Source: Coriobacteriales bacterium
Lineage (GTDB): Bacteria > Actinomycetota > Coriobacteriia > Coriobacteriales > UBA8131
DNA: 64,000 nt
Reading direction: 5' to 3'
NCBI GenBank assembly: GCA_031290175.1
Contig: JAITOC010000009.1
Location: forward strand, 10,285-74,284
The translations under genes and the position numbers were made by a program. The notes under the pieces are model-generated. The model was not told the DNA's origin. It did no database searches and saw only the letters and a list, made by a program, of their open reading frames with translations. Below are positions 19,792-48,693 of this stretch, in pieces (position 1 is the stretch's first letter; every line of letters starts with the position of its first letter).

Positions 19792-19800
19792 GCGCGTCTC

Positions 19801-22613: not shown

Positions 22614-22646
22614 CCCCACTTCCCTTCCTTGAGCACCGAAAACCCT

Positions 22647-23754: not shown

Positions 23755-23842
23755 TGCTTTCCTCCATTCTGTCCGGAGTCTTAGATCCGGACATCAGTGT
23801 CTCCTGACCTCCCTTTTGAGATCTGGAGAAAATACCAGTGTC

Positions 23843-25174: not shown

Positions 25175-25206
25175 GGTAATATGCTCCTTTCTTTGTCTCT
25201 GGCGTC

Positions 25207-26151: not shown

Positions 26152-26275
26152 TCTCTCCTTTCAAACCTTCATTACATTCCATGTGCATTGCAAAGTAGAC
26201 ATCCCCATACCTCTTCCGGCAAAGCGAACGACCATTCACCTCCTCCTTGATCCTTCTTCGAGACAAACGCAGCTA

Positions 26276-28405: not shown

Positions 28406-28435
28406 CCGTTGGTCCCTTCCCGATGTCCCGCCACC

Positions 28436-29218: not shown

Positions 29219-29283
29219 ACACCTCCCCGGAAACCTCTCATGTCGACCTCTCTCCTGGCAATGACTTCCTTAAGGCTCATGCG

Positions 29284-31179: not shown

Positions 31180-31215
31180 GATCTCTCCTTTCCAAATCAG
31201 TCCTCTGTGTGTCGC

Positions 31216-31988: not shown

Positions 31989-32789
31989 TCAGTTCTGTCC
32001 AAAAAGGCCCTCACGGAATGCCTCAAGATAGTTCATGCAGTATTCATCGTTGCCGAGAAGCGCATCGACGGCGTGCATGGTCGCCTGCATGTCGGCAGAC
32101 ATCGGATCCATGATGGCACTGTCCATCCCGGCGGCCATCGCAAGCGCGAGGAACTGGGTGTTGAGCGCCTTGCGATAGGGCATACCGAAGGATATGTTGC
32201 TCAGACCGGAGGTGATGTGCACGTCCGGGAATGCTGCCTTTATCAAACGAACTGCCTGGTTGAATCCCACCAGTGAGTCACCCTTGGTAGCAAGGGTCGT
32301 AACCAGAGGATCGATGAGCAGGTTATCGTGGGGAATCCCATTCTGATCCGCGAGTGCGACGATCTTTTTTGCGATCTCGAACTTGACCTGTGGATCCTCC
32401 GGTATTCCGTTGTCATCGCAGGTAAGAGCGACAACCTTCCAGTTGGTGCCAGCAATAGCGGGAAGGACGATCTCGCATTTGCCTGATTCGAGCGAGATGG
32501 AATTGATGAGACCCTCTTTGTTGGCCCGTGGAATCATGTCGACTATGACCTGGGGGTCTGAGCTGTCGATACACAGAGGGGTGTCGACGGTACCCTGAAC
32601 AAGATCGATGAGCCACTCCATGGTTTCGTGCTCGATGGCGGGCTCCACGCCGGCGCAGACGTCGATGTACGAAGCTCTGCCTGCAGCCTGTTTGGTCGCG
32701 AGCTCCTTGATGTACTTCTCGTCGTGCGCCTTGATGGCCTCAAGCGTCTTGGGGATGAACCCGTTTATCTTCTCGCCGATGATTATCAT
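31989..32789 (-). CDS. pterin-binding methyltetrahydrofolate:corrinoid methyltransferase paralog (candidate MT2)
   Basis: Begins MIIIGEKINGF and contains SGLSNISFGMPYR and LAMAAGMDSAI. ATG 32789 is preceded by GAAGGAGGA; the track start is 32834. It is the first gene of the acs cluster. Confidence 0.85.
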   Translation of the reverse strand: MIIIGEKINGFIPKTLEAIKAHDEKYIKELATKQAAGRASYIDVCAGVEPAIEHETMEWLIDLVQGTVDTPLCIDSSDPQVIVDMIPRANKEGLINSISLESGKCEIVLPAIAGTNWKVVALTCDDNGIPEDPQVKFEIAKKIVALADQNGIPHDNLLIDPLVTTLATKGDSLVGFNQAVRLIKAAFPDVHITSGLSNISFGMPYRKALNTQFLALAMAAGMDSAIMDPMSADMQATMHAVDALLGNDEYCMNYLEAFREGLFGQN

Positions 32790-33042
32790 GTGATCCTCCT
32801 TCATAGTCCCGCTCGGTCTTCTGGTCAGCGTCAAAGGGGGATACCCTATGGCTGCACTATCAGACTAGGGGTTGAAAATATTCACAGCAATCCGTTTGAT
32901 TGATGGAGAGATGATGCGTGTTTTCCTACACAATGCCGGAAAGGTTCAGGCGGGTCGGGAGCATAGAGGGAATCTATAATGGAGCTTGTTCGGATGGACG
33001 CAGGAATCATGCAACCGGGGGAGCCTTGAAAGGAGAACCATC

Positions 33043-33363
33043 ATGCACACTGAATCAGGACACACTTCACATCCACACGAGCATTCGCACGCACATATCC
33101 ATGAGCATTCACATGAGCACCCCTGTGATAACCTGCACACCCATCAGCATCCCGTGGGACAGAATGAGACCAGCGCGCTGCTGGGATATCTCATCGAGCA
33201 CAACACGCAGCACACCGACGAGCTGCTCACCCTTGCCGGCGATGCACAACAGAACGGATTGGTCGAGGTAGCAAAACGCATCGAAGCCGGTGCGACGCTC
33301 TACCGATCAGGCACCGAGGAGCTGGTCAAAGCACACGCACTCCTAAGAAAGGCGACAGTATAA
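33043..33363 (+). CDS. histidine-rich putative Ni/Co-binding protein (CooJ-like role inferred)
   Basis: 106 aa from ATG 33043, preceded by AAAGGAGAA. The N-terminal 40 residues are about 40 percent His (HPHEHSHAHIHEHSHEH), followed by a helical C-terminal domain. TAATG overlap with cooT. Confidence 0.6.
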   Translation: MHTESGHTSHPHEHSHAHIHEHSHEHPCDNLHTHQHPVGQNETSALLGYLIEHNTQHTDELLTLAGDAQQNGLVEVAKRIEAGATLYRSGTEELVKAHALLRKATV

Positions 33364-33557
33364 TGTGCCTCTCAACAGTACGCTACGCAACTGACAGCGA
33401 GTCGGACGCCCCTATCGCCAGCAACGTCACCTCTGTCGTTGTCAACGGCAGCAGGATAATGCTTACCGACCTTATGGGAAGCGAAATTGAGGTTGTTGGG
33501 GCAATCGTGCGGGTTGATCTCATAAAGAACCATATCATCATCGCGACCGCTGCTTGA
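33363..33557 (+). CDS. cooT: CooT family nickel-binding CODH maturation protein
   Basis: 64 aa. Starts MC (conserved Cys2) and shows the CooT-like pattern ...IMLTDLMGSEIEVVGAIVRVDLIKNHIII. Confidence 0.78.
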   Translation: MCLSTVRYATDSESDAPIASNVTSVVVNGSRIMLTDLMGSEIEVVGAIVRVDLIKNHIIIATAA

Positions 33558-33569
33558 ACACACTTCGGA

Positions 33570-35072
33570 TCACTCGTTCTTGAGCAGCTCGAATGACAGA
33601 AGCACGTACCACTGAGAATCGAAGTTCGTCATGTCGATGCCACATATCTTCTGGATACGCTCAAGCCGATAAGAAAGCGTGGTGCGATGGATGAAGAGCT
33701 CACGTGCCGTATGTGCCAGATTGAGATGGTTTTTCAGGTAGACATACAGCGTATTGTACAGCTCGGCATGATGCTCCCTGTCGTATGCTCTCAGGGCAAG
33801 CAGTTCCGGGGAACAGACCAAGGTCGCAGGTAGTGCCGTAGTGCAACTTTTAAGCAGGAGTGGCTTCACGATCCTATCGAAATGGAACAGTTCTCTATAG
33901 GGAAACGCCTGGGGGCCGAGCTCGAGCGCCAGGTCTGCTTGAGCACCATACTGACGCAGGTCGTCTAACCCGGAGAAGATGTTGCTCATCCCTGCTTTCA
34001 TGAAATTATCCCGCAGATACAGCGTCAATATCCGCTCAAACTCATCCCTGCTCCCCCGATACAGATCCAGATTGATGATAGCAACGATGCTTTCTCCGAG
34101 CTCGAACACGCCAGTCTCCGCAAGCATGCTCGCGATACGTTCGCGGATGAACCTGAGGGTTCGATCTCGATGCACCCTGATGTCGATGTGGAACCTCAGG
34201 GACACATAATGGTGCTGCGGCAACCACCCATAACCTTCGAGCTTCCTGACGATAGATTCCGTCTTCGTGAGGGAGCCCTCCATGATGAGTTTCAGGGTGT
34301 CCGCCAGACCGGGTTCCGCCGGGGTATACTCCGGCACGAAACCGATGGCCAGATGGGTGATCTCCGCAAGGTACTCCAACAAGACGGCGTCAGAGGATTT
34401 CAGAGCCTGCTTGAACTCAATCAGGATGAGGCGATACTTGAGCATGTCCTGTTGCACGATATTGACGCAGAACCCACGCTTCTCCTGTATGAGCAAGGGC
34501 AGGACATGGATACTCCCTGCCAGAGCTGAACTTGTGTCCATGGCAGAGCGCATCAGATAGGGCAACCGCATGCTGTTGAGAAGGGGCACCAGGTCAGGAT
34601 CTACCCCGATGTCATTCGAGAAGGCGACGGCCTTGAAGTTGACATCGTGAAGAAGCAGGGGGTTGCCGAACAGTTCGGTGCTCACATCGATCATCGCCTG
34701 CACATCCGATCCACTGCTGAGCATGGAATGTATACGTGCCTCCCAGAGATCATAGCGCGCAAAGATGTCCTGGAGGCCGTTGTGAACCTTGAACAGCGTA
34801 GCGCCGCTGTTGATGACAACGGCAGCATCGAAGTGCTCCAGGAGCTCCTCCGGAGCCGTACCGACGATGAGGATGAGCGATGAGACGGTGTTGGGAGGCA
34901 GAGGAATGTCGGAGGCGTCCTCGACAAGGTAGACCTGATCATCCATCCACGTTGTCCCCGGCTCGACGAAGAGGATGCGATGGATGACTGGCTTGCTGTC
35001 AGGCGTGCCGATAACGGTGCAATCAAAGGCCTCTTTCAGCCCCTCGGATATCATTTCAGCACTGATCTTCAT
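33570..35072 (-). CDS. PucR family transcriptional regulator
   Basis: 500 aa with the C-terminal PucR HTH ARELFIHRTTLSYRLERIQKICGIDM. ATGA overlap with the upstream DUF3786 gene. Confidence 0.85.
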   Translation of the reverse strand: MKISAEMISEGLKEAFDCTVIGTPDSKPVIHRILFVEPGTTWMDDQVYLVEDASDIPLPPNTVSSLILIVGTAPEELLEHFDAAVVINSGATLFKVHNGLQDIFARYDLWEARIHSMLSSGSDVQAMIDVSTELFGNPLLLHDVNFKAVAFSNDIGVDPDLVPLLNSMRLPYLMRSAMDTSSALAGSIHVLPLLIQEKRGFCVNIVQQDMLKYRLILIEFKQALKSSDAVLLEYLAEITHLAIGFVPEYTPAEPGLADTLKLIMEGSLTKTESIVRKLEGYGWLPQHHYVSLRFHIDIRVHRDRTLRFIRERIASMLAETGVFELGESIVAIINLDLYRGSRDEFERILTLYLRDNFMKAGMSNIFSGLDDLRQYGAQADLALELGPQAFPYRELFHFDRIVKPLLLKSCTTALPATLVCSPELLALRAYDREHHAELYNTLYVYLKNHLNLAHTARELFIHRTTLSYRLERIQKICGIDMTNFDSQWYVLLSFELLKNE

Positions 35073-35725
35073 CGTCTGCTGCCATTCCGTATGGCTATGA
35101 GATGGTTGATACTGATATCACCTATGACCGCAAGATCCTCCGCTGAGAACGCGGAGCGGAAGTTCTCGTCAAAGAGCACCTGGACTGACGGGGGGAACTC
35201 ATCATCTGCTGCCCATATCAGGATGCTCATGGGAAAACCGGAAAGGAACTCGAAGCAATACCCCACATCAGCATGAGCGACGCGTCTGGCATTGAGCTGT
35301 GATGCCCGCTCCATGACCTGCCCCAGGGATTCCGGATCACGACCGAACTCCCGCAGCAGTCTCCCAATGACGCGTCCCTGGAAATTGCTGGCATAGGTCT
35401 GTGCCCGGGGGAACTCCCGGTACGCCAACTCCCTGCCGGTCGGTTCCGTAAAGCACCCTTCGATGAGGAATCGCAGGATAAGGATACGTTCATAGGCTCG
35501 AGCTTCGGTGAGCTCTTCTTCTCTGACCATCGAGAAGTGTGGCCAGGATACCCGGTACCCCTGCCCCATGAGCGTCAGGCGGAACACCGCCGCGCCCTGC
35601 TCATATTCCAGCCCTGTGCGCAGGGCGATAACAGAGGGATCCATGCCCTCATAGAGAGCAGTGTAATGCTCAAGGGCTCGTGCGGTCAGCTGGTCATCCT
35701 GTGGGGACGGAGCCGTTTTTGCCAT
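35069..35725 (-). CDS. DUF3786 domain-containing protein
   Basis: 218 aa from ATG 35725, 11 nt after the RACo stop codon. The track ORF extends to 35974, but that part overlaps the RACo 3' end. It is a paralog of 45068-45745. The family name is from memory. Confidence 0.6.
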   Translation of the reverse strand: MAKTAPSPQDDQLTARALEHYTALYEGMDPSVIALRTGLEYEQGAAVFRLTLMGQGYRVSWPHFSMVREEELTEARAYERILILRFLIEGCFTEPTGRELAYREFPRAQTYASNFQGRVIGRLLREFGRDPESLGQVMERASQLNARRVAHADVGYCFEFLSGFPMSILIWAADDEFPPSVQVLFDENFRSAFSAEDLAVIGDISINHLIAIRNGSRR

Positions 35726-35738
35726 TCTCGCTACACTT

Positions 35739-37673
35739 TCATCTGGAAAAGAGCGATGCATCGGTATGGGGCAGGAAGCAGGCCGCGACGAATTCATCCA
35801 TATAGGACGGCATGGAGCTGAGCTCGACGTAGGTGATGTTATTCGCCAGAGCACACAGCTCGTCGTATGCCTCAGATGCCGAAAGAATCGCGTAGGAACC
35901 CGCCAGGGACGTATTCCCGATATAGGAATAACCCTCCCTTGGAATATTGGGCAGCATTCCAACTCCCACTGCATGCTCGATATCGATGGCGCTCCCTATG
36001 CCGCCCGCGATGTAGATGTGCTCGATGACGCTCATATCCATGTCCGCAATGGCAAGAATCGTGCGGATGGCCGAGAAGACCGAGCCTTTTGCGCGTATGA
36101 AGTTTTCGATATCCGCGTCATTCAGCGCCACCTCCTTGGCACCATCTGCCTCCTCAGCGGTTGCGATGATATAGGAGGTGCTTCCCCATTCGTCTTTTCG
36201 TATCCGATCCCCCTCCCGCTGAAACCGCCCTCGGGCATCTATGATCCCCGTCCGATAGAGTTCACCGATGGCGTCGATCAGACCCGAGCCGCAGACGCCC
36301 CTGGGCTTCTGATCGGGCTCCCCTATCACCTTGTAGCAGGGGTTCATCGTTGCGTCGTCAATCTCAAGCGCTTCGATAGCTCCATCGGTCGCCCGCATGC
36401 CGCAACTGATATCGCCTCCCTCAAAAGCAGGACCGGCGCTGCACGCACAGGCCATCAGGAAGTCAGAATTGCCGAAGACTATCTCACCGTTGGTTCCGAG
36501 GTCAATCAACATGGAAAAGGAGTCGCTGCGGCCGATCATGGAGGCAAGGACGCCCGCCGTTATGTCGCCCCCCACATAACTACCGACGGCGGGAGCAAGA
36601 AGCACGCGGGCATCAGGGTTTACCTCAGCCATCAACTCGGAGCCCCGGAGCCCCTCCAGGGAGAAGAATGCGGGAACGTAGGGCTCCAGCCGCAAATGGT
36701 TGCCGTAGACCCCCGTGAAGAGATGGATCATCGTGGTATTGCCCGCTACGGCGACACGCACGATGGAGGAAGCGCGGCGATTGATGCTTTCGACCAGGGA
36801 TCTCACCAATGGCTGCAGGCACTCTGTGACGATCGCCTCGCGCAAGCGCTCCAGACCGCCTGCGCGAGTGGACTCGATAAGGCGATTGATGACATCGGCA
36901 CCGAAGCGTATCTGCCCGTTGCCCGCCGACCCCGAGGCCAGTATCTGTCCGGTACTGAGGTCGGTCAGCAAGGCCGATACCGTCGTCGTACCGATATCGA
37001 TCGCCAGCCCCAGAGGAGCCTCGTTCTTGGATGAGACATCAAGGATGGTCAGGTTCCCGTTCGATTCCGTCTGGATAGTTGCCACAACGGTAAAGTCTGT
37101 CTCGCGGAGCGCGTGTGGCAAGACGCGAAGCGCACCGATTCCGACGCTTATCCTCTCCTCGGATACCCCAGTGCTTCCCGCCAGGGCGTGTAGCAGGCGC
37201 TCCTGATCCGCCTGGGCATCATCAAGCGTGGGAACCGAAAGGCTGACCTCACGCAACTCATACCCCTCAACAAGGGTGTGTCCAAGGCGAGCCAGTATCC
37301 CAGTAATGGCCGTGCGTGCGGCCTCCTCACGTGGGTTATCACTGCTGGAGACTCGTATTCCGCTCTGATATGCGGAGGCCTCAACGGGAACCTCAACCTC
37401 GATATCCCCGCGCAGGGTGCTGACGCATGCCAAGACCCATCCTTGGGCTGATTCCGCATCGTTTATGTGGCGGTTCTTGGGACTTTCCACCTCGCCGCGA
37501 ACCACGCGCACGCGACACTTCCCACAGGTCATATTCCCTGCACAGGGAGCGTCGATGGGCACGTTCGCATGCTTTGCGCTATCCAGCAGACTTGTGCCAA
37601 CGGCTGTTGATGCAACAATCTTCCGACCATCAGCAAGAGCGAAATTGACCCTGACAGCATCCATGTGAACCAA
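35739..37673 (-). CDS. reductive activator of corrinoid proteins (RACo; [2Fe-2S] plus ASKHA/DUF4445 ATPase, COG3894)
   Basis: 644 aa. Has the N-terminal plant-type ferredoxin motif CAGNMTCGKCRV and an ASKHA region GLAIDIGTTTV...DLGTNGEI. Alternative ATG at 37664. Confidence 0.85.
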   Translation of the reverse strand: MVHMDAVRVNFALADGRKIVASTAVGTSLLDSAKHANVPIDAPCAGNMTCGKCRVRVVRGEVESPKNRHINDAESAQGWVLACVSTLRGDIEVEVPVEASAYQSGIRVSSSDNPREEAARTAITGILARLGHTLVEGYELREVSLSVPTLDDAQADQERLLHALAGSTGVSEERISVGIGALRVLPHALRETDFTVVATIQTESNGNLTILDVSSKNEAPLGLAIDIGTTTVSALLTDLSTGQILASGSAGNGQIRFGADVINRLIESTRAGGLERLREAIVTECLQPLVRSLVESINRRASSIVRVAVAGNTTMIHLFTGVYGNHLRLEPYVPAFFSLEGLRGSELMAEVNPDARVLLAPAVGSYVGGDITAGVLASMIGRSDSFSMLIDLGTNGEIVFGNSDFLMACACSAGPAFEGGDISCGMRATDGAIEALEIDDATMNPCYKVIGEPDQKPRGVCGSGLIDAIGELYRTGIIDARGRFQREGDRIRKDEWGSTSYIIATAEEADGAKEVALNDADIENFIRAKGSVFSAIRTILAIADMDMSVIEHIYIAGGIGSAIDIEHAVGVGMLPNIPREGYSYIGNTSLAGSYAILSASEAYDELCALANNITYVELSSMPSYMDEFVAACFLPHTDASLFSR

Positions 37674-37760: not shown

Positions 37761-38993
37761 CTATCGAATCGAATTACGATAGCGATTCGGGGAGGTTTTG
37801 GCATAGCGCATAAACACTTTGGTGAAGTAGCTTTGATCCGAGTATCCGGTGAGGGTGCTCACGTCTGCCAGGCTAATCGATGAGTCGTGGAGGAAGTCCT
37901 TGCTCCTCTCGATACGGAAGCGATTGAGGTAGTCACGAAACGAATACCCAGTCTCCTCTTTGAAGAGCCGACTGAGATACTGCGGTGCGATATAGATGTG
38001 CGCCGCCGCGTCTTCGATGGTCATTCTCTTCGAATAATTCACCTGAATGTAATTAATGGCCTCACGAACAAGGTCGGAGCGTTTCGAATAGGGATTCTTG
38101 ATGACATATCCCGAATAGAGACTGAGGAACCCATTGAGCCACAGGATTATGTCTTGAAGGTTATCGAGGGCATCTACCTGTGGCAAAAGCTCTTTCTTCT
38201 GATCTTTGATGTATTCTTCCTGAGCACCATCGCGGATCATAGCGGCAGTCAGGTAGGTCATAATCTCTACGATCTGTTTGCGGATTGCGTCAAGATTCTT
38301 TCCGGGATGGAACAACATCATATCGACAATATCTCTCAACAGTATCTGAGCCGCGTTCGTATTGATGGAGGCAAGCAGCTGAGTCAGCTTCTGCACCTCA
38401 TCCAACATCCTTCGCCCATTGTCCTGTTCGGTCTCATTGAAGAACGAGTTAACATAATCGGAAAGCTGTTTGTTGGGCGAGAAGCTCTCATCGATACTCT
38501 CGAAATATTCGGGGCGCGTACCGTCACTGACATACTCGGCATTGATATGCAGTTGCTCAGAAAGCGCAAGGAGACTGGTGGCGTCGCGCACAGGAATGGT
38601 AGACAATTCCTCGAGCAGGCCGTGATAATCGCCTGTCGGTATCTTTGGCAGGAGTTCATACTCAAAATAATCCTCGATCGAACTCATCAGGATAGGCCCG
38701 CCAAAAACAGACAGGTACTTCTTGGCTTCTCGATATACCGGGGAGACGAAAAAGAAAAAACCCCTCGGGTCGGCGAAGATATAGCGTCCTCTGAACCTCA
38801 GGGTCTCATAACTTGCCTTGATAATGGATGCCTGACAGCGCTCTCTCACGTCAAGGAGTTCGGAAACCGAATCAAGAACTCCGGCAATCTGTGTATAGTG
38901 CTCTGTTTGGTACACAAGCTTGCCATTATCATCAAGTATGAACACGCCAATCTTGGACACGAAAGAAAAATCATTCATCGTCTCAAATTGCAT
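37761..38993 (-). CDS. AraC family transcriptional regulator with an uncharacterised N-terminal sensor domain
   Basis: C-terminal AraC HTH (LADVSTLTGYSDQSYFTKVFMRYAKTSPNRYR). The gene is visibly AT-richer than its neighbours. I chose ATG 38993; the track start GTG is at 39005. Confidence 0.85.
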   Translation of the reverse strand: MQFETMNDFSFVSKIGVFILDDNGKLVYQTEHYTQIAGVLDSVSELLDVRERCQASIIKASYETLRFRGRYIFADPRGFFFFVSPVYREAKKYLSVFGGPILMSSIEDYFEYELLPKIPTGDYHGLLEELSTIPVRDATSLLALSEQLHINAEYVSDGTRPEYFESIDESFSPNKQLSDYVNSFFNETEQDNGRRMLDEVQKLTQLLASINTNAAQILLRDIVDMMLFHPGKNLDAIRKQIVEIMTYLTAAMIRDGAQEEYIKDQKKELLPQVDALDNLQDIILWLNGFLSLYSGYVIKNPYSKRSDLVREAINYIQVNYSKRMTIEDAAAHIYIAPQYLSRLFKEETGYSFRDYLNRFRIERSKDFLHDSSISLADVSTLTGYSDQSYFTKVFMRYAKTSPNRYRNSIR

Positions 38994-39097
38994 GGACAAC
39001 CCCACTATAACGATATAAAGAAAACATAGTTACACCCTCAACTCTGTGAATAAGGTTATTGTACCATGGCTTCGAAAGTGCGCTACAGCTCGTTGTG

Positions 39098-39658
39098 TTA
39101 TCCGTGGATCAATGAAAGAACCTCATGCCGCGAACGAATGGAGGTCTCGAAGGCGCCCCGCACTGCCGAGGTCGTCGTCGTGGTTCCCGGTTTCTTGACT
39201 CCCCGCATCGACATACAGAGATGCTCCGCCTCGATGACGACGATGACAGCATCCGCCTCAAGCTGCTCCATCAGGGTGTCCGCTATCTGGGATACCATGC
39301 GCTCCTGCACCTGGAGCCTTCGGGCATAGGCCTCCAAAAGCCGAGCCAGCTTGGATAGCCCACAGACATGACCCCGTCTGCCGGGGATGTAGCCGATATG
39401 CGCGACGCCAAAGAAGGGCACCAAGTGGTGTTCACACAGCGAATAAAAAGGCATATCTTTGACGAGGACGATCTCGTGATGATGCTCATCGAATACCTTC
39501 TGCAGTATCGATGCGGGATCCTGTTCGTTACCCGCGAGCACCTCCTTGTACATCCGCGCCACCCGTGCCGGTGTCTCACGCAGCCCTTCGCGCAAGACAT
39601 CCTCCCCTACTCCTTCAAGGATGAGACGGACGCCTTGCTCTATCTTGGTCAGATCCAT
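39098..39658 (-). CDS. folE: GTP cyclohydrolase I (type IA, Zn-dependent)
   Basis: Closely resembles Bacillus FolE as I recall it. Contains [18 protein letters not shown] and [15 protein letters not shown] chose ATG 39658; TTG 39670 is also possible. Confidence 0.93.
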
Positions 39659-39670
39659 AGGAAACCTCAA

Positions 39671-40297
39671 CTATCTCGTTATCGATGGGACAGGAGAAGC
39701 CAGCAGCATCTTCCATACCGCTGGTTCGATGGTGCACGTGGCAGCCATCTCGATGATCGCAACCCCGGGCTGTAACTCCCCGAGCGTTCGGACGATCTGT
39801 TGTTTCGTGCCTTCGTCGACGAGGTCGATCTTATTCAACAGGATTGTGGTTGCCCCTTCAAGCTGTCGTCGTATCATCCTATCATTAAAAGCAATCAGCT
39901 TGATGAAACGACTGGCATCAACGACCACAAGAGAACTGACGGAAGCATCAAGACCTCTGCATGAGCGTATTTCGGCTTCGATCTCGGACGGTATGGCAAG
40001 ACCGGTCGCTTCGATGATGAGCCATTCGGGGTCGTACAACTCCCGAATCTCTTGTATCGTCAAACTGAGATCGTCTGCCAGGTTGCAGCAGATGCAACCT
40101 GCAATCAGCTCCCGCACCTCCAAACCCCCTGCCCGCAAGGTGGCTCCATCAATGCTCACAGAACCGATCTCGTTCTCGATGATGACGACCGCGGTGCCCG
40201 TATCACGACGCGATACATCCTTGAGATACATGGCAAACGGAAGCAGCAGGCTTGTCTTCCCCGAGCCGAGGAATCCGCTCAAGAGCACTATCCTCAT
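39671..40297 (-). CDS. short COG0523 (CobW/HypB/UreG-superfamily) GTPase metallochaperone lacking the CobW C-terminal domain
   Basis: About 208 aa from ATG 40297, preceded by GGAAGGAGGGA. Has Walker A GFLGSGKTS and the CxCC motif GCICCNL. It ends directly before folE. Confidence 0.8.
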   Translation of the reverse strand: MRIVLLSGFLGSGKTSLLLPFAMYLKDVSRRDTGTAVVIIENEIGSVSIDGATLRAGGLEVRELIAGCICCNLADDLSLTIQEIRELYDPEWLIIEATGLAIPSEIEAEIRSCRGLDASVSSLVVVDASRFIKLIAFNDRMIRRQLEGATTILLNKIDLVDEGTKQQIVRTLGELQPGVAIIEMAATCTIEPAVWKMLLASPVPSITR

Positions 40298-40559
40298 CAC
40301 AGTCCCTCCTTCCCTAGTGCGCGGCGTCCCGCAGAAACAAGACCTATCCGTCATCTGTTAGCATGATACTTCCCTCGAAGCCCTGAACTTTGGTGAAGAC
40401 CTACACAGTTCTTGTACTTTTCCTACCTATGCCGTCAAATCGATTCCTGAACCCATGATCCATTGTCTATACTTAGCAGCAAATCCCTTTGATGCTAGAC
40501 AGGGTGCATATACTCCGTACCGCATATGACATCTTCGAAGACAACAACAGGAGGTAGCG

Positions 40560-42074
40560 ATGACCGCCCGGCGACCAATAGTAACATTCACTGATGAACA
40601 GAAGCGTGTTGAGGCAGATGTGGGTGACAACCTGCTCGACCTCATCCTCGAGCAAGGCATCGCCATCAAAGCTGATTGCGGCGGCGTGGGCACCTGTGGC
40701 AAGTGCCGCGTGCTCGTCGATGGCGAGGTACAACATGCCTGCCTCACCCGGGTTGTCCGCGACACCGAGGTGCTCGTGGTCGATGTGGATGCTGCCGATG
40801 GCTATGCGATCCTGACGGAGTTCAGAGAGGATGGTACGGGGAAGGTCGATCTGTCCGGTGCCACAAGCCCGGCAGGATCGGATCTCGCAGTCGCCATCGA
40901 TATCGGCACGACGACGATAGTCGGCAAGCTCCTTGACCGTTCAAGCGGGATCGAATTGGCATCCTTTGCCCAGCTGAACTCCGAGCTACCCTACGGTGCC
41001 GATGTCATCTCGCGTATCAAGGTCTGTCTCGAGGATGCATCCACGCTCTCCTCCCTTATCACCGAGCAGATCGACACCGCAATCTCAGAAATGCTTGCAA
41101 GCAGTCAGGTCGACCGCAGCTCGATCTCACGCGTGGTTCTGGCAGGCAACACGACGATGGTCTATATCCTGCTGAACCTGCCCTGTCAATCGCTTGGCTT
41201 CTCTCCCTTCATCCCCGAGATTCCCGTTGACCTGACTTATCCCTATACTCGGATATTCCATACCGACACGCTCACCTGCGATTGCACCATCATCCCTTTC
41301 ATCTCCGGCTACGTAGGAGGAGATATCACAGCTGGTCTGCTTTCCTTGGCCTCAGAGGACGATTTTATCCTTATGGACATGGGCACCAACGGAGAGCTCG
41401 TGTTTAAGCGGGGAGATCACCTCATCTGCACCGCGACTGCAGCAGGGCCTGCATTCGAGGGCGGCAATATCGAATGCGGATCAGGAAGTGTCCGGGGTGC
41501 CATCTCAAAGGCTTGGTTCGAGGATGGGAAGATTACCTTCAAGACGATTGGTGGGGAGCGACCAGTGGGCATCTGCGGCTCCGGCATCCTCGACCTGGGC
41601 GCTCTGCTCGTCAGGGAGCGGTTCATAGATGAGACCGGCTATCTCGACGATGACCTCGGCAGCGACCGCATCGTCCTGACAGACAAGCCCGACAGCAACC
41701 CTGAGGTCTATTTTTCACAGAAGGATGTACGCCAGTTCCAGCTCGCAAAGAGCGCGACCCGCACAGGTCTTGAGATTATCATCGATGAGATGGGCGGTGC
41801 CCTGCCCTCGAAGGTCTTCCTCGCCGGAGGCTTCGGACAGAACCTCGATCCGGCCAGCGCCATTGCGACAGGCATGCTCCCCGAGAGCTTTGCGGGGCGC
41901 GTATCCCCTATCGGCAACAGCTCCCTCAACGGTGCTATAAAGGCGTGCTTAAATGACGCACTGGTCAGCACCGCCGCAGGTTCCATCGAGCACGCAGTCG
42001 AGATAAACCTCGGATCACATCCGAAGTTCAACGACCTGTTTATGGATCAGATGGCATTCCCAACGGAGTCATGA
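40560..42074 (+). CDS. second, shorter RACo-type corrinoid reductive activator ([2Fe-2S] plus ASKHA)
   Basis: 504 aa. Contains CGGVGTCGKCRV, and ASKHA motifs AVAIDIGTTTIV and DMGTNGELV. RBS AGGAGG upstream. Confidence 0.85.
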   Translation: MTARRPIVTFTDEQKRVEADVGDNLLDLILEQGIAIKADCGGVGTCGKCRVLVDGEVQHACLTRVVRDTEVLVVDVDAADGYAILTEFREDGTGKVDLSGATSPAGSDLAVAIDIGTTTIVGKLLDRSSGIELASFAQLNSELPYGADVISRIKVCLEDASTLSSLITEQIDTAISEMLASSQVDRSSISRVVLAGNTTMVYILLNLPCQSLGFSPFIPEIPVDLTYPYTRIFHTDTLTCDCTIIPFISGYVGGDITAGLLSLASEDDFILMDMGTNGELVFKRGDHLICTATAAGPAFEGGNIECGSGSVRGAISKAWFEDGKITFKTIGGERPVGICGSGILDLGALLVRERFIDETGYLDDDLGSDRIVLTDKPDSNPEVYFSQKDVRQFQLAKSATRTGLEIIIDEMGGALPSKVFLAGGFGQNLDPASAIATGMLPESFAGRVSPIGNSSLNGAIKACLNDALVSTAAGSIEHAVEINLGSHPKFNDLFMDQMAFPTES

Positions 42075-42133: not shown

Positions 42134-42697
42134 GTGCTAGCAGAGGAAACCAAGGTTGAGACCGCACTGGAAACGCTGAAAGTGTTTCTGTGGCATGAGA
42201 TGACCTCGTTCGACCCGCGCATCCTCAGCTTCACCCAGGAGATACGCTCCATATGTGAGAGCAATGGCTGCGGGCGCTACAACAAGGTCTGGAACTGCCC
42301 ACCCGCTGTAGGCTCACTTAAGGAGCTGGAAAAGAGCCTTCGTGTCTACCGGGAAGCCATTCTCTTCACTGAGTTGTCATGGCTCGAGAGTCCCTTTGAC
42401 TGGGATGCCATGGTCTTGGGTGGCAAGAGTTTTGACAAGCGGCTTGCACTTGCCAATAACCATCTGAAGCAGGCATTCGACGGAACCGACACCGCGTTTA
42501 AGCTCTTTGGCTCAGGGATGTGCCAATCATGTGACTCATGCACCTATCCCGATGCGCCCTGCAGGTATCCCGACCTGCTGTTCACACCAATTGAAGCCTG
42601 TGGGATCAATGTGGTTGAACTCTCCCAAAAAGTGGGCATCGCATACAACAATGGCGAGAACACCGTAACTTGGTTTGGCATGATTCTCATCGCATAG
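42134..42697 (+). CDS. DUF2284 predicted metal-binding protein
   Basis: 187 aa with the Cys patterns CESNGCGRYNKVWNCPP and CQSCDSCTYPDAPCRYP, which I recall as typical of DUF2284. GTG start. Confidence 0.72.
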   Translation: MLAEETKVETALETLKVFLWHEMTSFDPRILSFTQEIRSICESNGCGRYNKVWNCPPAVGSLKELEKSLRVYREAILFTELSWLESPFDWDAMVLGGKSFDKRLALANNHLKQAFDGTDTAFKLFGSGMCQSCDSCTYPDAPCRYPDLLFTPIEACGINVVELSQKVGIAYNNGENTVTWFGMILIA

Positions 42698-42799: not shown

Positions 42800-44176
42800 T
42801 TAGAGGTCGAACTTCTTGGGCTGGAACAAATCGCCGCAGGAGTCCGCCATCTTCGCGAGGAAGGCATCGTCGGTGTCGGGCATACCGGAGAGGGTATCCA
42901 GAAGCAGGTCGATGTAACCGACCTCACGGTCGATAAGGAGCAGCTCGTTGTTATCGTATCCCTTCTGTATCGCCTGAAGAGCCAATTCGGCACCCTTCTT
43001 CATCCTCAGGTAATGCGTATCCTGCTTGACAAGCTCCTGCGAGATTGCCAGGGCGACATCGGGACGCAGGATGTATGCCATCGGGTCAAGCCTGCTGTCA
43101 CTGTCAGCATTGAGATCCCTGATGGCACGCGCGAGCTTGATGTCCTTCCTCAGCGCACCGTTCATGATGCGACAGTCATAGGCCAACTGCTCGAAGGAGA
43201 CAACCTCAGAGAAGCCACCCATCAACTTGATGTGCTGGATGGACTCGTTGCTCCACAGGTCGCACACACAGGAAGCGATGTTGCCAAGAGGCGACAGGTG
43301 CGCAACGGCAGCTACGCGTCCTTCATTCGTGATAGGTGTCCCCGATATGGCCTTAAGATAGATATTCTCATAGCCACAGTCCTTGCTGGGACCCTTTGCG
43401 CCTTCTTCTACGGCGACGAGGGTACGAACGGATGCGACCACGCGATCAGCAGCTGCGAACACGCGTGGAATCATGTTCTTATCGGCAAGCACCAAGGATG
43501 TATTTGCGAATCCGCAGGCAGTGTCGCCCGCGGGGATCGAACCGCTATCGTTGGCAATCTTGACGATCTCGGACCAGAGCCTGCTCATGTCCTTGGAACC
43601 GAGCCAAAGACCAAATATGGTCTTCTCGATGTCACAGTACATACACCCTTCGTCATGGATGTCCTTGCCACCGACCGATTCGATCGACAGAAGGTCGGCG
43701 CCAGCTTCGGCGCTCCTCTTGAAGGTATCAAGCACCAAATCCCACTCTTTGCCCGACCACATGTGCTTGACATTGGGGCCTTCGCGGAGGTCGATGACCG
43801 TGGTGCGCACGGCGGTCTTAGTGCCGTGATTCGTATCGTTGTCACGCAGTACGTCCTTGACGACCTTTGTTATCTCGGCACCCCATTTTGGTACCCAGGT
43901 CATCTCAGGAAGGATCTCGATCTCGGCAACAAAGCCGGGGTGGTACAGTTCATTGCAGCGCTCGGAAATCCCCGTGGCGATCTCATGATAGATACGGACA
44001 ACCTCAGGCCAGGATTCCTCAGAAATGGTCATGGTGGGGAGAGAGAAGTTGACCTCGGGGTACACGATGCCGCCACCAATCTCAAGCCCACTCTTGGTGG
44101 TAACCGGGTACTTCGCACTTCCGAAGATGAAGTCATCCAGATTCTTATAGGCAGTATCTTTGAACAGCTTTCCCAT
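42800..44176 (-). CDS. mtaB: methanol:corrinoid methyltransferase (MT1), MtaB family
   Basis: 458 aa. Aligns end to end with Methanosarcina MtaB as I recall it: ADLLSIESVGGK, GDTACGFANT, SKDCGYENIYLKAI and CDLWSNES are conserved. Confidence 0.88.
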   Translation of the reverse strand: MGKLFKDTAYKNLDDFIFGSAKYPVTTKSGLEIGGGIVYPEVNFSLPTMTISEESWPEVVRIYHEIATGISERCNELYHPGFVAEIEILPEMTWVPKWGAEITKVVKDVLRDNDTNHGTKTAVRTTVIDLREGPNVKHMWSGKEWDLVLDTFKRSAEAGADLLSIESVGGKDIHDEGCMYCDIEKTIFGLWLGSKDMSRLWSEIVKIANDSGSIPAGDTACGFANTSLVLADKNMIPRVFAAADRVVASVRTLVAVEEGAKGPSKDCGYENIYLKAISGTPITNEGRVAAVAHLSPLGNIASCVCDLWSNESIQHIKLMGGFSEVVSFEQLAYDCRIMNGALRKDIKLARAIRDLNADSDSRLDPMAYILRPDVALAISQELVKQDTHYLRMKKGAELALQAIQKGYDNNELLLIDREVGYIDLLLDTLSGMPDTDDAFLAKMADSCGDLFQPKKFDL

Positions 44177-44223
44177 TACAAAAACCTCCTTCGTGATAGC
44201 TTAGAATAGTGTCTCGCAGTAGA

Positions 44224-44856
44224 CTACGAAACAAGTTCCTTGGCAACGTCTACGGCGGAAGACGAATCGGTCGAATACGCATCCGCGCCTATCTTCCTTG
44301 AGAAATCGAGCGATATCGGTGTTCCACCGATCATGACCTTGACCTTGTCGCGCAGACCTGCTGCCTTGAGTGCCTCGATGACGACGCCCTGCTGCTCCAT
44401 GGTGGTCGTGAGCATAGCAGACATGGCGATGATGTCAGCATTGCGCTCCTTGGCGGTCTCGACGAACTTCTCAGGTGCAACATCGATGCCCAGATCGATG
44501 ACCACGAAGCCTGCACCTTCCAGCATCATCTTGACGAGGTTCTTGCCGATGTCGTGCAAGTCACCCTTAACTGTACCGATAACGACGGTACCGATCTCCT
44601 TGACACCATCTGCCACGAGAAGCGGCTTGATGAGCGCCGTGCCCGCTGCAAGAGCCTTGGCAGCCATGAGCACCTCGGGTACGAAGATCTCATTGTTCTT
44701 GAACTTCCCGCCAATGATATCCATTCCTGCCAACAGACCGTCATTCAGGATCTTCTCGGCCTTCACGCCGTCGTCAATGGCCTGTTGCGCGAGCTGCTCA
44801 ACATCCTTGACCTTGCCCCTCTGTACCGCAGTTGAAAGATCGTCGAAAATAGACAT
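44224..44856 (-). CDS. mtaC: methanol-type corrinoid protein
   Basis: 210 aa with the B12-binding DxHxxG motif (GDLHDIGK). It lies directly upstream of mtaB, with RBS GAAGGAGGAA. Confidence 0.88.
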   Translation of the reverse strand: MSIFDDLSTAVQRGKVKDVEQLAQQAIDDGVKAEKILNDGLLAGMDIIGGKFKNNEIFVPEVLMAAKALAAGTALIKPLLVADGVKEIGTVVIGTVKGDLHDIGKNLVKMMLEGAGFVVIDLGIDVAPEKFVETAKERNADIIAMSAMLTTTMEQQGVVIEALKAAGLRDKVKVMIGGTPISLDFSRKIGADAYSTDSSSAVDVAKELVS

Positions 44857-45067: not shown

Positions 45068-45745
45068 TTGCAAATCAACTACAATCTTCCTGTGAAAACT
45101 CTTATGAAAAATGGTTACGAACAAACCTATGAACTTCTGGTGCCCCGTCTGGCAACCCATGATTTTGCCTTGGCGGCGCTCCATCTTGGTCTTGCCCCAC
45201 CTGTAGAAGACAGCCTTGAGGTAACCTTCCTCCGTCGTCGCTATCGGGTCGATCACCAGGGCGTCTTTGAGGCCGACGGGGAGCCCCCCTCGCATATCAA
45301 TTGCAGGAGTGTCCTTATCTACTATGTTACCTGGGGCGGCAAGGGAGAGCCGTATCAGCGTTATCAGCAGCTCCACCAGTTCTCAGGGGGCATCTTCACT
45401 GGGGGCGGCTCCAAGGAACGGGGTGCCGACTGGATGTTGTCTCCGCTGACGGAGCAGTTCAATGGAAAGCCTGAGCTCTTTGAGGCTACGATGGAGGTCA
45501 TGGGTGCCAAAAGGTGTCCTGCGAGTGCGAGTGGGGTCACGACTTGGCATTACCTGGTTCTCCCCAAGATGCCCATTGAGATACGCTATTACGAAAAAGA
45601 TGATGAGTTTGACTGCGAGGTGCACATCCTGTTCGATCAGACCGCGACGCAGTTCACTCCCTTTGAGACGCTCTGCGTACTTCACGGGTGCCTGGTTAGC
45701 GAGATCGTCCAAGTGGGGCGAGAGACACAGAAAAGCGAGTGCTGA
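45068..45745 (+). CDS. DUF3786 domain-containing protein (second copy)
   Basis: 225 aa from TTG 45068 (alternative ATG 45104). It is a paralog of 35069-35725 and is divergent from mtaCB. Confidence 0.6.
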   Translation: MQINYNLPVKTLMKNGYEQTYELLVPRLATHDFALAALHLGLAPPVEDSLEVTFLRRRYRVDHQGVFEADGEPPSHINCRSVLIYYVTWGGKGEPYQRYQQLHQFSGGIFTGGGSKERGADWMLSPLTEQFNGKPELFEATMEVMGAKRCPASASGVTTWHYLVLPKMPIEIRYYEKDDEFDCEVHILFDQTATQFTPFETLCVLHGCLVSEIVQVGRETQKSEC

Positions 45746-45872: not shown

Positions 45873-48176
45873 TTATTCGATATATTGTTTGCCGTCACTG
45901 CGCTCCGGAGCGTCGTTGACCTTAAGGGTCTTCACCTTTGCAAAGGTGTTCAAGTCGTAGACGTTGAGCCTGGTCATGGAGTAGACATACAGATAGTTAT
46001 CGACGTAGAAGCCACGCGTATTCCTGCCACCCCAGGCGTCGTCATCATCGAGGGGAAGTTCAGCTTTGAGATAGAAGCCTTTTTTGTCGGTATAGCCGTA
46101 CACGAGATAACTGTCCTCTCCGGGGAAGGCGATCAGGTCATGTTCTGCATCGATAAGGACAGTCTTGTGGTCGTCGAGCGCTGACGTGTAGTAGATATCC
46201 AGTTCCTTGGTGCTGAGCTCGGTCACATCGTAGGGATTGCTCGTATCAAACATACTGAGTTTAACATTGCCGGTGCTACTTCCAACGGCGGCATGCCCTA
46301 TACCAAAGAGGCGCCCTTCAGAGAAGGGGTGCAGATAGGTGCTAAATCCTGGTATCTTGAGCTCGCTCATGATTTTTGGAACTCTCGGGTTTGAGAGATC
46401 CACGGCAAAAAGCGGATCCATCTGGCGATAGGTGACAACATAGCCGACCTTACCCGTAAAGCGTACACTGTAGATGCGCTCATCCTCGGCGAGCCCTGTG
46501 ATACTGCCGACTACTTCAAGATCGGGATCGAGCACGAAAAGTGCGCTTGACGGCTGGTTGTCATCGTATTTATAGCTCTCTATATCGAGCTCCTCATCCA
46601 AGTACACCTTGTAGCCGTAGCTCTGATCCGTTGTTGCGACGCGGAGGTTTCCCTGATACTCGTCAAGCGAGAACTGATTGAGCAGCGTGCCGGGTATGCT
46701 GGTTTCGGCGGTGATGTCCAGGTTGCCCTTATCCGCAGAAACTCGGATGATGTGTGTGTTTGAACCGCTGCGATATTCGGTAACAGTGTAGACGCTCTCC
46801 CGGTAAGGCTCAAGCGCCACATCCTCATAGACAGATGAGCCGAGATAGAGGTTATCGTCGCTCATGTAGACCGTCTCTGTGCCACCCAGCGCCGAGCTGC
46901 TATCGATGAACTGGCGGGAACCAAGGTCGATCGAGTTGATGACTGTGTAAGTAGGTGAATTAACCTGCGGCAAAATGCAGATATCTTCGACCGGAAGGCA
47001 TTCGTAAACACCGTTCACGCCCCTGAGTGGTACGTAGGTTGCGGGATCATCCTCAACAACATCGGACTGGAGAGAGTAGTTCGTGACGAAATAGAGCACA
47101 CCGTCATTTAAGCGTGAAGTGTTGTAGTAACCGCTGCCAGCATACTCACCAACGAGAATCGCGTTTGCAGGATCCTTGACATTGAAGAGCAGAACCTTCG
47201 TCAAGCTATCACCCTGATAATAGTAAGAGTTGCCGCCAGCACGCTTGCCGTCCTCATACCAGGCATAGCTCTGGACAATGACGGCGAGTGTCGAATCGCT
47301 GATATAGAGCTCGTAGACCGTCTGAAGGTTGTCGAGGTCAGCGACAGAGGCACGAAACACCTCAGTCGTATCGGCACCGGTGGCCGTGAAGATGACGAGG
47401 TCGCCCCGCGACACAGCATAGATGTAGTCCCCGTCGGTTTTGACGATATCTCCCTCATCAATGCCTTCGACCTGCGTATTGGTCGTAGAGTAATCAGAGG
47501 AAGCCACGGAGGAGCCAGAATCGGCTGAGATTTCGGGCGCTACCGACGAGCTTCCTAACTCTTTCGCACTTTCTGAGCCACTTGCAGGAGCAGATTGCAT
47601 AACTTCTGCTCCTGCCACAGAGTCCTCTGTACCCAGGGGCTCAACCGTGTCATAGGCAATGTCACCGCCATAGCTCGACGTATAGGAGAATCCGTCTATC
47701 GTCTGGTAAATCTCGGCATAGGATTCGGCTGACACAGGCTTGATGGTCATCTTGTTGCCAGAAGGTCCCTCGTAGGTTGGGCTTAGATCGATAGTTGTAT
47801 TGCCCGAACGACCACCTAGGGCAGTATCAATCAGGTCATCGAGGAACTGCGAGCCAAGAGCGGCGGTTACGCCAACTACAACAAGCACCATGACGGCGGC
47901 GGCGGCGGCAATCCCCCATACGTACCTACGCTTCTTCTGGCGGAGCGGTCGTACGGAGCCAGGAACGTCTATGCGCGCAGAGGGCACGGGGCTGGGCAGC
48001 CCAGAGGTGCCCGATACGGCAGCCGAACCAGAGGCGACAACTGAGCCCGCTGTCTCGGCGGAGTCAGACCCCGAGGGCTGGGCATCCTCTGCCTCCAAAG
48101 CAGTCGTAAGCCTGTCAAGCAGCTCGTCTGACGGCGTCATCTGCTCCTTCATGTTGTTAAGGATGTTTTTAGTCAT
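45873..48176 (-). CDS. anti-sigma factor fused to an extracytoplasmic beta-propeller domain (COG4880/Beta_propel family)
   Basis: 767 aa. It has a short cytoplasmic N-terminus, one TM (WGIAAAAAVMVLVVVGV), and motifs LDEYQGNLRVATT and VRFTGKVGYVVTYRQMDPLFAVDLSNP...ELKIPGFSTYLHP. Its start overlaps the sigma gene by 8 nt. Confidence 0.75.
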   Translation of the reverse strand: MTKNILNNMKEQMTPSDELLDRLTTALEAEDAQPSGSDSAETAGSVVASGSAAVSGTSGLPSPVPSARIDVPGSVRPLRQKKRRYVWGIAAAAAVMVLVVVGVTAALGSQFLDDLIDTALGGRSGNTTIDLSPTYEGPSGNKMTIKPVSAESYAEIYQTIDGFSYTSSYGGDIAYDTVEPLGTEDSVAGAEVMQSAPASGSESAKELGSSSVAPEISADSGSSVASSDYSTTNTQVEGIDEGDIVKTDGDYIYAVSRGDLVIFTATGADTTEVFRASVADLDNLQTVYELYISDSTLAVIVQSYAWYEDGKRAGGNSYYYQGDSLTKVLLFNVKDPANAILVGEYAGSGYYNTSRLNDGVLYFVTNYSLQSDVVEDDPATYVPLRGVNGVYECLPVEDICILPQVNSPTYTVINSIDLGSRQFIDSSSALGGTETVYMSDDNLYLGSSVYEDVALEPYRESVYTVTEYRSGSNTHIIRVSADKGNLDITAETSIPGTLLNQFSLDEYQGNLRVATTDQSYGYKVYLDEELDIESYKYDDNQPSSALFVLDPDLEVVGSITGLAEDERIYSVRFTGKVGYVVTYRQMDPLFAVDLSNPRVPKIMSELKIPGFSTYLHPFSEGRLFGIGHAAVGSSTGNVKLSMFDTSNPYDVTELSTKELDIYYTSALDDHKTVLIDAEHDLIAFPGEDSYLVYGYTDKKGFYLKAELPLDDDDAWGGRNTRGFYVDNYLYVYSMTRLNVYDLNTFAKVKTLKVNDAPERSDGKQYIE

Positions 48177-48693
48177 TGAAGTACTCTCCTTTCAGACGAT
48201 TGCGCAACTGCGCACGTCCTCTTGAAAGCTGCACCTTCACCGTTCCTGCCTCGATTCCCTGCAGCACGCTTATCTGAGCAATGGAGAGATCATCAAAGTA
48301 GAACAAGTGCAATACGGTTCGATACGGTAGTGGGAGCTCCTGGAGCGCCTGGAAGACCCTGTCCTCTTCCTCGGAGCGAAAGTGGAAGCTGTCTTCAGAA
48401 GCGGGCTCGATGTCGGTGTCGTGGATGGGTACGACCTTTTTGTGCCAACTGTTGGAAGTGGCCTGCTTGGAACAATTGATCGTTGTCACGATGAGCCAGG
48501 CCTTGCAGCGCTCATCCGTTTCAAACACCGGTCGTTTTCGATGGTAAGCCAAGAAGACCTCTTGGAAGACGTCTTCGGCGTCCGTCTTGTTGCTGGTGTG
48601 GCTGAGCGCGATACGGTACACCATGTCCTTGTAGTGCATGACTACGGCTTCCGTATCGAGATACGCCGACTGCGCGACTGCATTCATACCCAA
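48169..48693 (-). CDS. ECF-type RNA polymerase sigma-70 family factor
   Basis: 174 aa. Region 2 reads VFQEVFLAYHR and region 4 reads LSIAQISVLQGIEAGTVKVQLSRGR. TTG start lies 6 nt after GGGAGG. Confidence 0.88.
   Translation of the reverse strand: MGMNAVAQSAYLDTEAVVMHYKDMVYRIALSHTSNKTDAEDVFQEVFLAYHRKRPVFETDERCKAWLIVTTINCSKQATSNSWHKKVVPIHDTDIEPASEDSFHFRSEEEDRVFQALQELPLPYRTVLHLFYFDDLSIAQISVLQGIEAGTVKVQLSRGRAQLRNRLKGEYFND

Follow-up and report, generated by a model that had tools for sequence, protein, structure and literature searches.

The 64,000-nt stretch analyzed here (referred to below as the window), from the genome of a Coriobacteriales bacterium for which metagenomes are the only source, contains two neighboring genes, mtaC and mtaB, which encode a corrinoid protein and a methanol-type methyltransferase, together with a cluster of genes for the acetyl-CoA (Wood-Ljungdahl) pathway. 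An earlier note on this DNA had proposed that the pair might supply that pathway with methyl groups from methanol or a similar small donor, and the open reading frames (ORFs) it had listed are retained with the same limits and lengths:

42800-44176, minus strand: mtaB, methanol:corrinoid methyltransferase (methyltransferase I), 458 amino acids (PF12176, 2I2X_A, and an AlphaFold2 model)
44224-44856, minus strand: mtaC, cognate corrinoid protein, 210 amino acids (B12-binding and B12-binding_2 domains, match to 1Y80)

Judging from sequence and modeled structure, we estimate at about 0.7 the probability that this Coriobacteriales genome has, in the window, a functional methanol:tetrahydrofolate methyltransferase system of the bacterial type. 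The enzymes themselves are conventional, and it is the host lineage that is the unusual part.

MtaB, MtaC and their relatives

The two genes form a compact, co-oriented pair in which 47 bp separate mtaC from mtaB downstream, and a Shine-Dalgarno sequence, AAGGAGG, precedes the ATG of each (9 nt 5' of it in the case of mtaB). The 458-amino-acid product, which the earlier note had aligned along its full length with Methanosarcina MtaB, matches Pfam PF12176 with 510 bits (cut-off 25; E 8e-153), residues 3-455 of 458 covering profile positions 2-458 of 460, and its sole sequence match among solved structures is MtaB from Methanosarcina barkeri (PDB 2I2X_A; E 9e-85, residues 3-440). The three motifs that the note had quoted are all present, and they align with the solved protein as LSIESVGGK/LLSVESMGGK, GDTACGF/GDTDCAQ, and KDCGYEN/KDCGYEN (window/M. 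barkeri). In this alignment, E166, C221, and C267 of the window MtaB fall exactly on E164, C220, and C269 of the 2I2X chain, the latter numbered by counting. We take these three residues to be the Zn ligands of the M. barkeri enzyme, since they coincide with aligned and invariant Glu, Cys, and Cys columns; their numbering reportedly stems from the 2006 work of Hagemeier et al.

Conservation was assessed in a family alignment of 202 sequences, comprising 47 archaeal, 32 PVC-type (Planctomycetota, Verrucomicrobiota, Armatimonadota, and similar phyla), and 122 Firmicutes-type homologues in addition to the window protein. The predicted Zn ligand columns are 100% conserved in the 201 homologues, and the window MtaB retains 71 of the 75 columns with at least 97% conservation, the four exceptions (A227S, L337I, Q366M, and Y456F) being conservative. 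An AlphaFold2 model of the protein, built from a 41-sequence alignment, has a pLDDT of 89.9 and a pTM of 0.91, and Foldseek superposed it on 2I2X_A over its full length (TM 0.92/0.92, root-mean-square deviation 2.4 Å, E 4e-35), with no other PDB match at E <= 0.001. The modeled fold is a TIM barrel superposable on the solved MtaB, and the ligand mapping that the note had asked for holds at the level of the aligned sequences and the superposed chains, rather than of superposed ligand atoms.

The upstream 210-amino-acid protein, for which a DxHxxG cobalamin motif had been claimed, indeed contains that motif as D99-L-H101-D-I-G104 (the base-off/His-on type), and Pfam assigns it both a B12-binding_2 cap and a B12-binding Rossmann domain. 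Its best PDB match is 1Y80, MtaC from Moorella thermoacetica (E 1e-62), to which it is 50% identical in a gapless alignment of two 210-amino-acid proteins. In the comparison with methanogen MtaC it scores 111-115 bits, where the cut-offs are 420-450, and it has no counterpart of the N-terminal extension of archaeal MtaC. A second corrinoid protein gene, encoding 211 amino acids and 49% identical to MtaC, is present at 16417-17052 (minus strand); it is an orphan between a DegV gene and a hydrogenase cluster, with no adjoining methyltransferase I gene.

The window MtaB is identical to NCBI MDR3315012.1, which is annotated as 'hypothetical protein LBS98_00795 [Coriobacteriales bacterium]', and JGI names it methanol--5-hydroxybenzimidazolylcobamide Co-methyltransferase. 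Besides this identical copy, no relative above 60% identity was found among 5.8 billion proteins. The named matches at 55-60% identity are nearly all proteins called methanol--corrinoid methyltransferase from metagenome-assembled genomes (MAGs) of Firmicutes, with two from Treponema MAGs. Moorella served as the anchor to experimental work: a search with the 1Y80 sequence led to the identical M. thermoacetica protein (P0135) and thereby to its locus (L083/L084), whose mtaA1B1C1 genes were induced on methanol with log2 fold changes of +9.0 to +9.9 in a 2026 study (PMC13391211). Over its full length, the window MtaB shares 49% identity with Moorella MtaB1; with the homologue from Thermacetogenium phaeum it shares 51%.

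In a distance-based neighbor-joining (NJ) tree built from all 202 sequences (support from 100 bootstraps of a subsample of 65; MtaB from A. woodii, E. limosum, and Sporomusa left out), the window MtaB falls within a bacterial clade that unites Firmicutes-type MtaB, a protein from a Propionibacteriaceae MAG, Moorella MtaB1, and the Thermacetogenium homologue with 99% bootstrap support. It lies outside the PVC/Armatimonadota group and outside the archaeal sequences, the latter forming a clade of their own (100%). Within the bacterial clade it joins proteins from Clostridiales Family XIII MAGs with 62% support, or 74% when Gracilibacteraceae are added. No MtaB-family clade with another known substrate was found. 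The chloromethane enzyme CdmB was considered as such a member and rejected, as it belongs to the UroD superfamily (PMC13222342).

The window MtaB reaches 380 bits against the methanogen equivalog NF040651 (MtaB_Meth), for which the cut-off is 720. We did not count this against function, because the methanol-induced Moorella MtaB1 likewise falls short with 409 bits; NF040651 delimits the archaeal enzymes only, and the window MtaB stands outside the methanogen subfamily. Compared with M. barkeri MtaBC (2I2X), the window pair thus shares the fold, the aligned predicted Zn ligands, and a corrinoid partner of the DxHxxG type, whereas the identity between the two MtaB proteins is only about 35-37%. 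In the M. barkeri complex, Zn and Co lie about 7.7 Å apart (PMC6257451). The systems would differ also in the methyl acceptor, which in the window is expected to be tetrahydrofolate, served by a pterin-binding methyltransferase II, and in methanogens is coenzyme M, served by a URO-D-type MtaA.

The family as a whole is compact: of 1.84 billion clusters at 50% identity, 547 have a representative that belongs to it at E <= 1e-3. One scan of contigs gave only loci that share peptide patterns with the query itself, mostly KDCGYENI; the Firmicutes MtaB matches that were inspected carry KDCGYEG/C in its place. A large group of MtaB homologues with 40-48% identity was seen in MAGs of Planctomycetota, Verrucomicrobiota, Armatimonadota, Hydrogenedentota, Kiritimatiellia, and Fibrobacterota (among loci L002-L034), and the PVC-type homologues keep all three predicted Zn ligands. 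For example, in a Phycisphaeraceae MAG (L006, 9144-15123), mtaB is flanked by an AraC regulator gene, a gene for a 258-amino-acid MtaC-like protein, and two URO-D (MtaA-like) genes.

Partner genes and the CODH/ACS cluster

The remaining components of a methanol-dependent pathway are sought in the following genes of the window:

22969-23754, minus strand: AcsE (CODH_ACS_meth 430 bits, cut-off 370)
23843-25174, minus strand: AcsC (Pfam)
25207-26151, minus strand: AcsD (Pfam)
26276-28405, minus strand: AcsB, part of the CODH/ACS cluster (Pfam)
28436-29218, minus strand: CooC (Pfam)
29284-31179, minus strand: AcsA, part of the CODH/ACS cluster (Pfam)
31216-31986, minus strand: CooC, second copy (Pfam)
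31989-32834, minus strand: MtaA-type methyltransferase II, methyl-corrinoid:tetrahydrofolate methyltransferase (identity to MtaA1, NF005719, 4O0Q/4O1E)
35739-37673, minus strand: AcsV, activator of the corrinoid iron-sulfur protein (CoFeSP) (NF040756 848 bits, cut-off 800)
37761-39005, minus strand: PocR-domain AraC-family regulator (Pfam PocR, HTH_18, HTH_AraC)
39098-39670, minus strand: FolE, the Zn-dependent GTP cyclohydrolase I, abutting the CobW-like gene with no gap
39671-40354, minus strand: short CobW/COG0523-like GTPase, N-terminal domain only (PF02492 121 bits)
40560-42074, plus strand: RACE/RamA-type ATP-dependent reductive activator, 504 amino acids (Fer2, Raco_middle, and RACo_C_ter in Pfam)
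42134-42697, plus strand: DUF2284 predicted metal-binding protein, between the activator and mtaB (PF10050 134 bits)
45068-45745, plus strand: DUF3786 protein, divergent from mtaC (PF12654 114 bits)

The adjacent acetyl-CoA pathway that the earlier note mentioned is represented by the CODH/ACS genes at 22969-31986 and by AcsV. The carbonyl branch (CODH, ACS, CoFeSP, AcsE, and AcsV) is complete, all of its members scoring above NCBIfam or Pfam cut-offs, with CODH_ACS_al_bet at 976 and CO_DH_cata at 613 bits in addition to the AcsE match. With scores of hundreds of bits, as for MtaB, chance can be set aside.

The first gene of this cooC-acsA-cooC-acsB-acsD-acsC-acsE string is the one at 31989-32834, the likely true start of which is Met16, at 32789. 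Its product is 42% identical to Moorella MtaA1, and the two have similar profiles, scoring 336 and 369 bits, respectively, against NF005719 and 107 and 141 bits against CODH_ACS_meth. Its best PDB match is 4O0Q/4O1E (303 bits, E 2e-89), compared with 128-150 bits for AcsE/MeTr structures. We take 4O0Q, whose PDB record reads 'dihydropteroate synthase DHPS', to be the methyltransferase II that works with the O-demethylase of Desulfitobacterium hafniense. This enzyme (4O0Q/4O1E/4O1F) is the best solved relative of the window protein and likewise a methyl-corrinoid:tetrahydrofolate methyltransferase of a three-component system; however, it serves an O-demethylase, while its window counterpart is proposed to serve a methanol system. 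Structures 4O1E and 4O1F have been used as templates for CH3-H4F and H4F (PMC13222342). We infer that the 31989-32834 protein partners MtaC. Since methyltransferase II enzymes can be shared among methyltransferase I enzymes (PMC13391211), the substrate cannot be read from this component. AcsE of the window was also considered as the methyltransferase II of the methanol system and set aside, being a bona fide AcsE and only 32% identical to MtaA1.

The 504-amino-acid protein encoded beside mtaB, which has a 2Fe-2S ferredoxin domain and an ASKHA domain, resembles RACo (PDB 3ZYY, E 7e-63) and scores 277 bits against the AcsV model, below its cut-off of 800. By these matches, it is a dedicated RACE/RamA-type activator distinct from AcsV. 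An Oscillospiraceae MAG (L087) also has a DUF2284 gene (5424-5966) about 2 kb from mtaB, and the window has a second DUF3786 paralogue at 35069-35974 (minus strand), adjoining AcsV; both families, DUF2284 and DUF3786, seem to be recurrent companions of corrinoid methyltransferase genes. The CobW-like GTPase is a candidate metallochaperone, which might provide Zn for MtaB or for FolE. In Methanosarcina, COG0523 genes cluster with mtaA, mtaB, mtaC, and ramM, so that mta genes are linked there to a CobW-type gene and a Ram-type activator gene as they are in the window (PMC2770081). With the regulator encoded directly upstream of a Family XIII mtaB (L086), the PocR/AraC protein shares 38% identity along its entire length, and with the PocR-AraC protein beside Moorella mtaACB it shares 24%; it is a candidate regulator of the methanol genes.

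The MtaB proteins nearest to that of the window, at 56-60% identity, come from MAGs of Clostridiales Family XIII and Gracilibacteraceae (P0050, P0066, P0096, P0100, P0041, and P0097). The module in the Family XIII locus L086 consists of cobW (5128-5736), a corrinoid protein gene, the PocR/AraC gene, mtaB, and mtaC. Since the window has counterparts of CobW at 37%, of PocR/AraC at 38%, and of MtaC at 51% identity, the regulator, GTPase, MtaB, and MtaC are, on sequence grounds, a recurring module. In the Family XIII and Gracilibacteraceae loci, however, mtaB precedes mtaC, opposite to the order in the window, and there is no acs cluster within 8 kb.

The Moorella locus, by contrast, has CODH, CooC, PocR-AraC, a corrinoid protein, MtaA (267 amino acids, pterin-binding), MtaC (210 amino acids), and MtaB (476 amino acids), in that order. 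It has in common with the window the three-component logic of MtaA1-MtaC1-MtaB1, a pterin-binding methyltransferase II, the order mtaC then mtaB, and the position of the mta genes beside CODH/ACS with a PocR-AraC gene in between. Unlike in Moorella, a Firmicute, the methyltransferase II gene of the window is detached from mtaCB and heads the acs operon, mtaCB is flanked by the RACE activator, DUF2284, DUF3786, and CobW-like GTPase genes, MtaB is shorter (458 vs. 476 amino acids), and the host belongs to the Coriobacteriales (Actinomycetota).

Several other features surround these genes. Directly downstream of acsE lies a group-4 NiFe (Ech/Coo-like) hydrogenase cluster (17266-22619, minus strand) with ferredoxin-like, large, small, NADHdh-like membrane, and antiporter-like membrane subunits, a candidate for the site at which the acetyl-CoA pathway is coupled to energy conservation. 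No Rfam element was found near mtaCB, and the sole riboswitch in the window is a cobalamin riboswitch (RF00174, 35.7 bits) at 15028-15145 (minus strand). It precedes a DUF4430 gene and genes for ECF/ABC-type transporters (11055-14926, minus strand), which together look like a corrinoid uptake system, fitting an organism with several corrinoid enzymes. About 735 bp (32835-33569) separate a PucR-type regulator gene from the MtaA-like/cooC/acsA operon head; this interval has no ORF of at least 150 amino acids and no Rfam match, and may be a regulatory region. On the other side of mtaCB, a gene at 45873-48693 (minus strand) encodes a 767-amino-acid beta-propeller protein (PF09826) with a Ser/Ala-rich low-complexity N-terminal region and a hydrophobic segment. 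There is an overlap with the end of a gene for an ECF sigma factor, and the two products may form a sigma/anti-sigma-like pair with no connection to the methanol genes.

Host and origin of the genes

The contig that carries mtaB is 77,472 nt long and includes a housekeeping gene that can be used to identify the host:

58212-59993: aspartyl-tRNA synthetase (AspRS), on the same contig as mtaB

The named top matches of AspRS, at 67-84% identity, are from Coriobacteriales, Coriobacteriia, Eggerthellaceae, Raoultibacter, or broader Actinomycetota only, and the assignment of the host to a Coriobacteriia-type bacterium is therefore sound. With a GC content of 51-62%, the background agrees with the high-GC Gram-positive setting described in the earlier note. 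The GC content at third codon positions (GC3) is 0.70 in mtaB and 0.69 in mtaC, inside the spread of the window (mean 0.675 +/- 0.046), and the two genes are therefore compositionally native to it. Further, the local gene order is identical in the JGI assembly, the Logan assembly, and the NCBI MAG, which argues against chimerism.

Because the nearest MtaB proteins are from Firmicutes, and because no MtaB above 60% identity exists in the databases searched despite AspRS relatives at up to 84%, the data suggest that mtaCB was acquired by an old horizontal transfer, or else lost extensively among the relatives of the host. The transfer is inferred only from this phylogenetic mismatch. A recent transfer or foreign island was considered and finds no compositional support, neither GC nor GC3 of mtaCB being deviant.

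A second lineage of Actinomycetota with such genes was seen in the Propionibacteriaceae MAG Md513_bin123 (L001, 4466-6478), in which mtaB is followed by an mtaC-like gene; this MAG originates from a termite gut (Mastotermes darwiniensis; PMC12483993). Its MtaB is 55% identical to that of the window, yet the two do not group in the tree, which suggests that the Propionibacteriaceae gene is an independent acquisition. Several of the proteins nearest to those of the window bear accessions and locus tags in a style typical of termite-gut MAG projects, a hint that the window may come from an insect gut as well. No published account of such a system came up when the literature was searched for MtaB in the Coriobacteriia and for Wood-Ljungdahl genes in Coriobacteriales of termites.

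Proposed pathway and competing explanations

In the pathway that we propose, methanol would bind at the Zn2+ of MtaB (E166, C221, and C267), which would polarize the C-O bond, and the Co(I) corrinoid of MtaC (His101-on, base-off) would attack the methyl group to yield CH3-Co(III)-MtaC. Next, the pterin-binding methyltransferase of the MtaA type, whose gene is the first of the acs operon, would pass the methyl group to tetrahydrofolate, and AcsE, CoFeSP, and ACS/CODH would join it with CO and CoA to form acetyl-CoA, while part of the methyl-tetrahydrofolate would be oxidized to supply electrons. The 504-amino-acid RACE-type protein would use ATP to re-reduce Co(II)-MtaC that has been accidentally oxidized, the PocR/AraC protein would probably act as regulator, and the CobW-like GTPase may load Zn. 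If the genes operate in this direction, the organism probably converts methanol to acetate. The link to the acetyl-CoA pathway, proposed in the earlier note, is strengthened in silico because an MtaA-type gene lies inside the acs operon and a reductive activator gene lies beside mtaB.

Several points weigh against this interpretation. The nearest experimentally supported MtaB, that of Moorella, is only 49% identical to the window protein. Among the 162 positions with 95% or more conservation across the Firmicutes-type clade, the window protein deviates at 15, and its model has two loops of low confidence (residues 289-292 and 314-324). About 10 kb lie between mtaCB and the methyltransferase II gene, which is outside the mtaCB operon, and scans for promoters and terminators gave no consensus above shuffle expectation. 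Fhs, FolD, and MetF are not present within the 64-kb window, where SHMT (2123-3373) and the Ech-like hydrogenase are the only further pathway-related genes visible. Finally, methanol is no substrate for the cultured Coriobacteriia that have Wood-Ljungdahl genes, Anaerosoma and Parvivirga (PMC9686372).

Alternatively, the methyltransferases may work as described in an organism that is no methanol-consuming acetogen, in which methyl-tetrahydrofolate would be oxidized to CO2 and the electrons released as H2 via the Ech-type hydrogenase, in syntrophy, or passed to another acceptor, or in which the methyl group would merely be assimilated. The position of the hydrogenase cluster next to acsE would suit such a metabolism, as would a window in which methyl-branch and energy-conservation genes are not visible, and methanol use based on MtaB is known from non-acetogens such as Desulfotomaculum kuznetsovii (PMC5770442). 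However, the CODH/ACS operon begins with the methyltransferase II gene, and the intact and adjacent set of ACS, CoFeSP, AcsE, and AcsV is arranged as in the methanol-using acetogen Moorella, and we consider this alternative unlikely. That the window protein acts on some other small methyl donor, as a new specificity within the MtaB fold, we judge improbable. Its identity to other proteins is only 49-60%, its 15 departures from the conserved Firmicutes-type positions and its two low-confidence loops near the barrel leave room for a change, and corrinoid methyltransferase families do diversify, as illustrated by CdmB, which has an O-demethylase-like ancestor and acts on chloromethane (PMC13222342). 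On the other hand, the characterized PF12176 members found in the literature all use methanol, the family is small and compact, and the near-invariant residues, including the predicted Zn site, are all kept. Further, bacterial MtaB proteins with transcriptomic or biochemical support differ among themselves to a similar degree, that of Moorella being 56-57% identical to those of A. woodii and E. callanderi (PMC13391211), and the 49-60% seen here is therefore in a similar range.

It might also be argued that mtaCB is foreign to the Coriobacteriia genome, through mis-binning or a chimeric contig, or that it is an inactive relic, given that the nearest MtaB relatives are all from Firmicutes, at no more than 60% identity, and that no related MtaB was found in Coriobacteriia even though relatives of AspRS reach 84%. 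This explanation is very hard to reconcile with the presence of mtaCB on one 77-kb contig with Coriobacteriia-type housekeeping genes, with a local gene order assembled independently by JGI and Logan, and with a GC3 that matches the remainder of the window. Neither does a relic agree with intact mtaB and mtaC ORFs, strong Shine-Dalgarno sequences, and the retention of all conserved residues, and we regard the chance of either as very slight.

A functional methanol:tetrahydrofolate methyltransferase system is thus our preferred reading, and a more ambitious version of it would make the lineage a genuine methanol-consuming (methylotrophic) acetogen, the first in Actinomycetota, one that took up a cobW/PocR-AraC/mtaB/mtaC module of the Firmicutes type and connected it to its own CODH/ACS operon by way of the MtaA-type gene at the operon head. 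We advance this version tentatively, and the odds are, in our judgment, somewhat against it.

The value of the finding is ecological and taxonomic rather than mechanistic, the protein being already in public databases and the gene already named at JGI. In the Coriobacteriia, Wood-Ljungdahl genes are known from MAGs and we know of no cultured acetogen; the conversion of methanol to acetate is a concrete and testable hypothesis for this class. Methanol from the demethylation of pectin and lignin is a common substrate in anoxic habitats, and its usual presumed consumers are methanogens and a few acetogens or sulfate reducers among the Firmicutes. An intact MtaBC beside CODH/ACS in a member of the Coriobacteriales extends the candidate methanol sinks to the Actinomycetota, and if the source is an insect-gut community, the lineage could be among the acetate producers still to be identified there.

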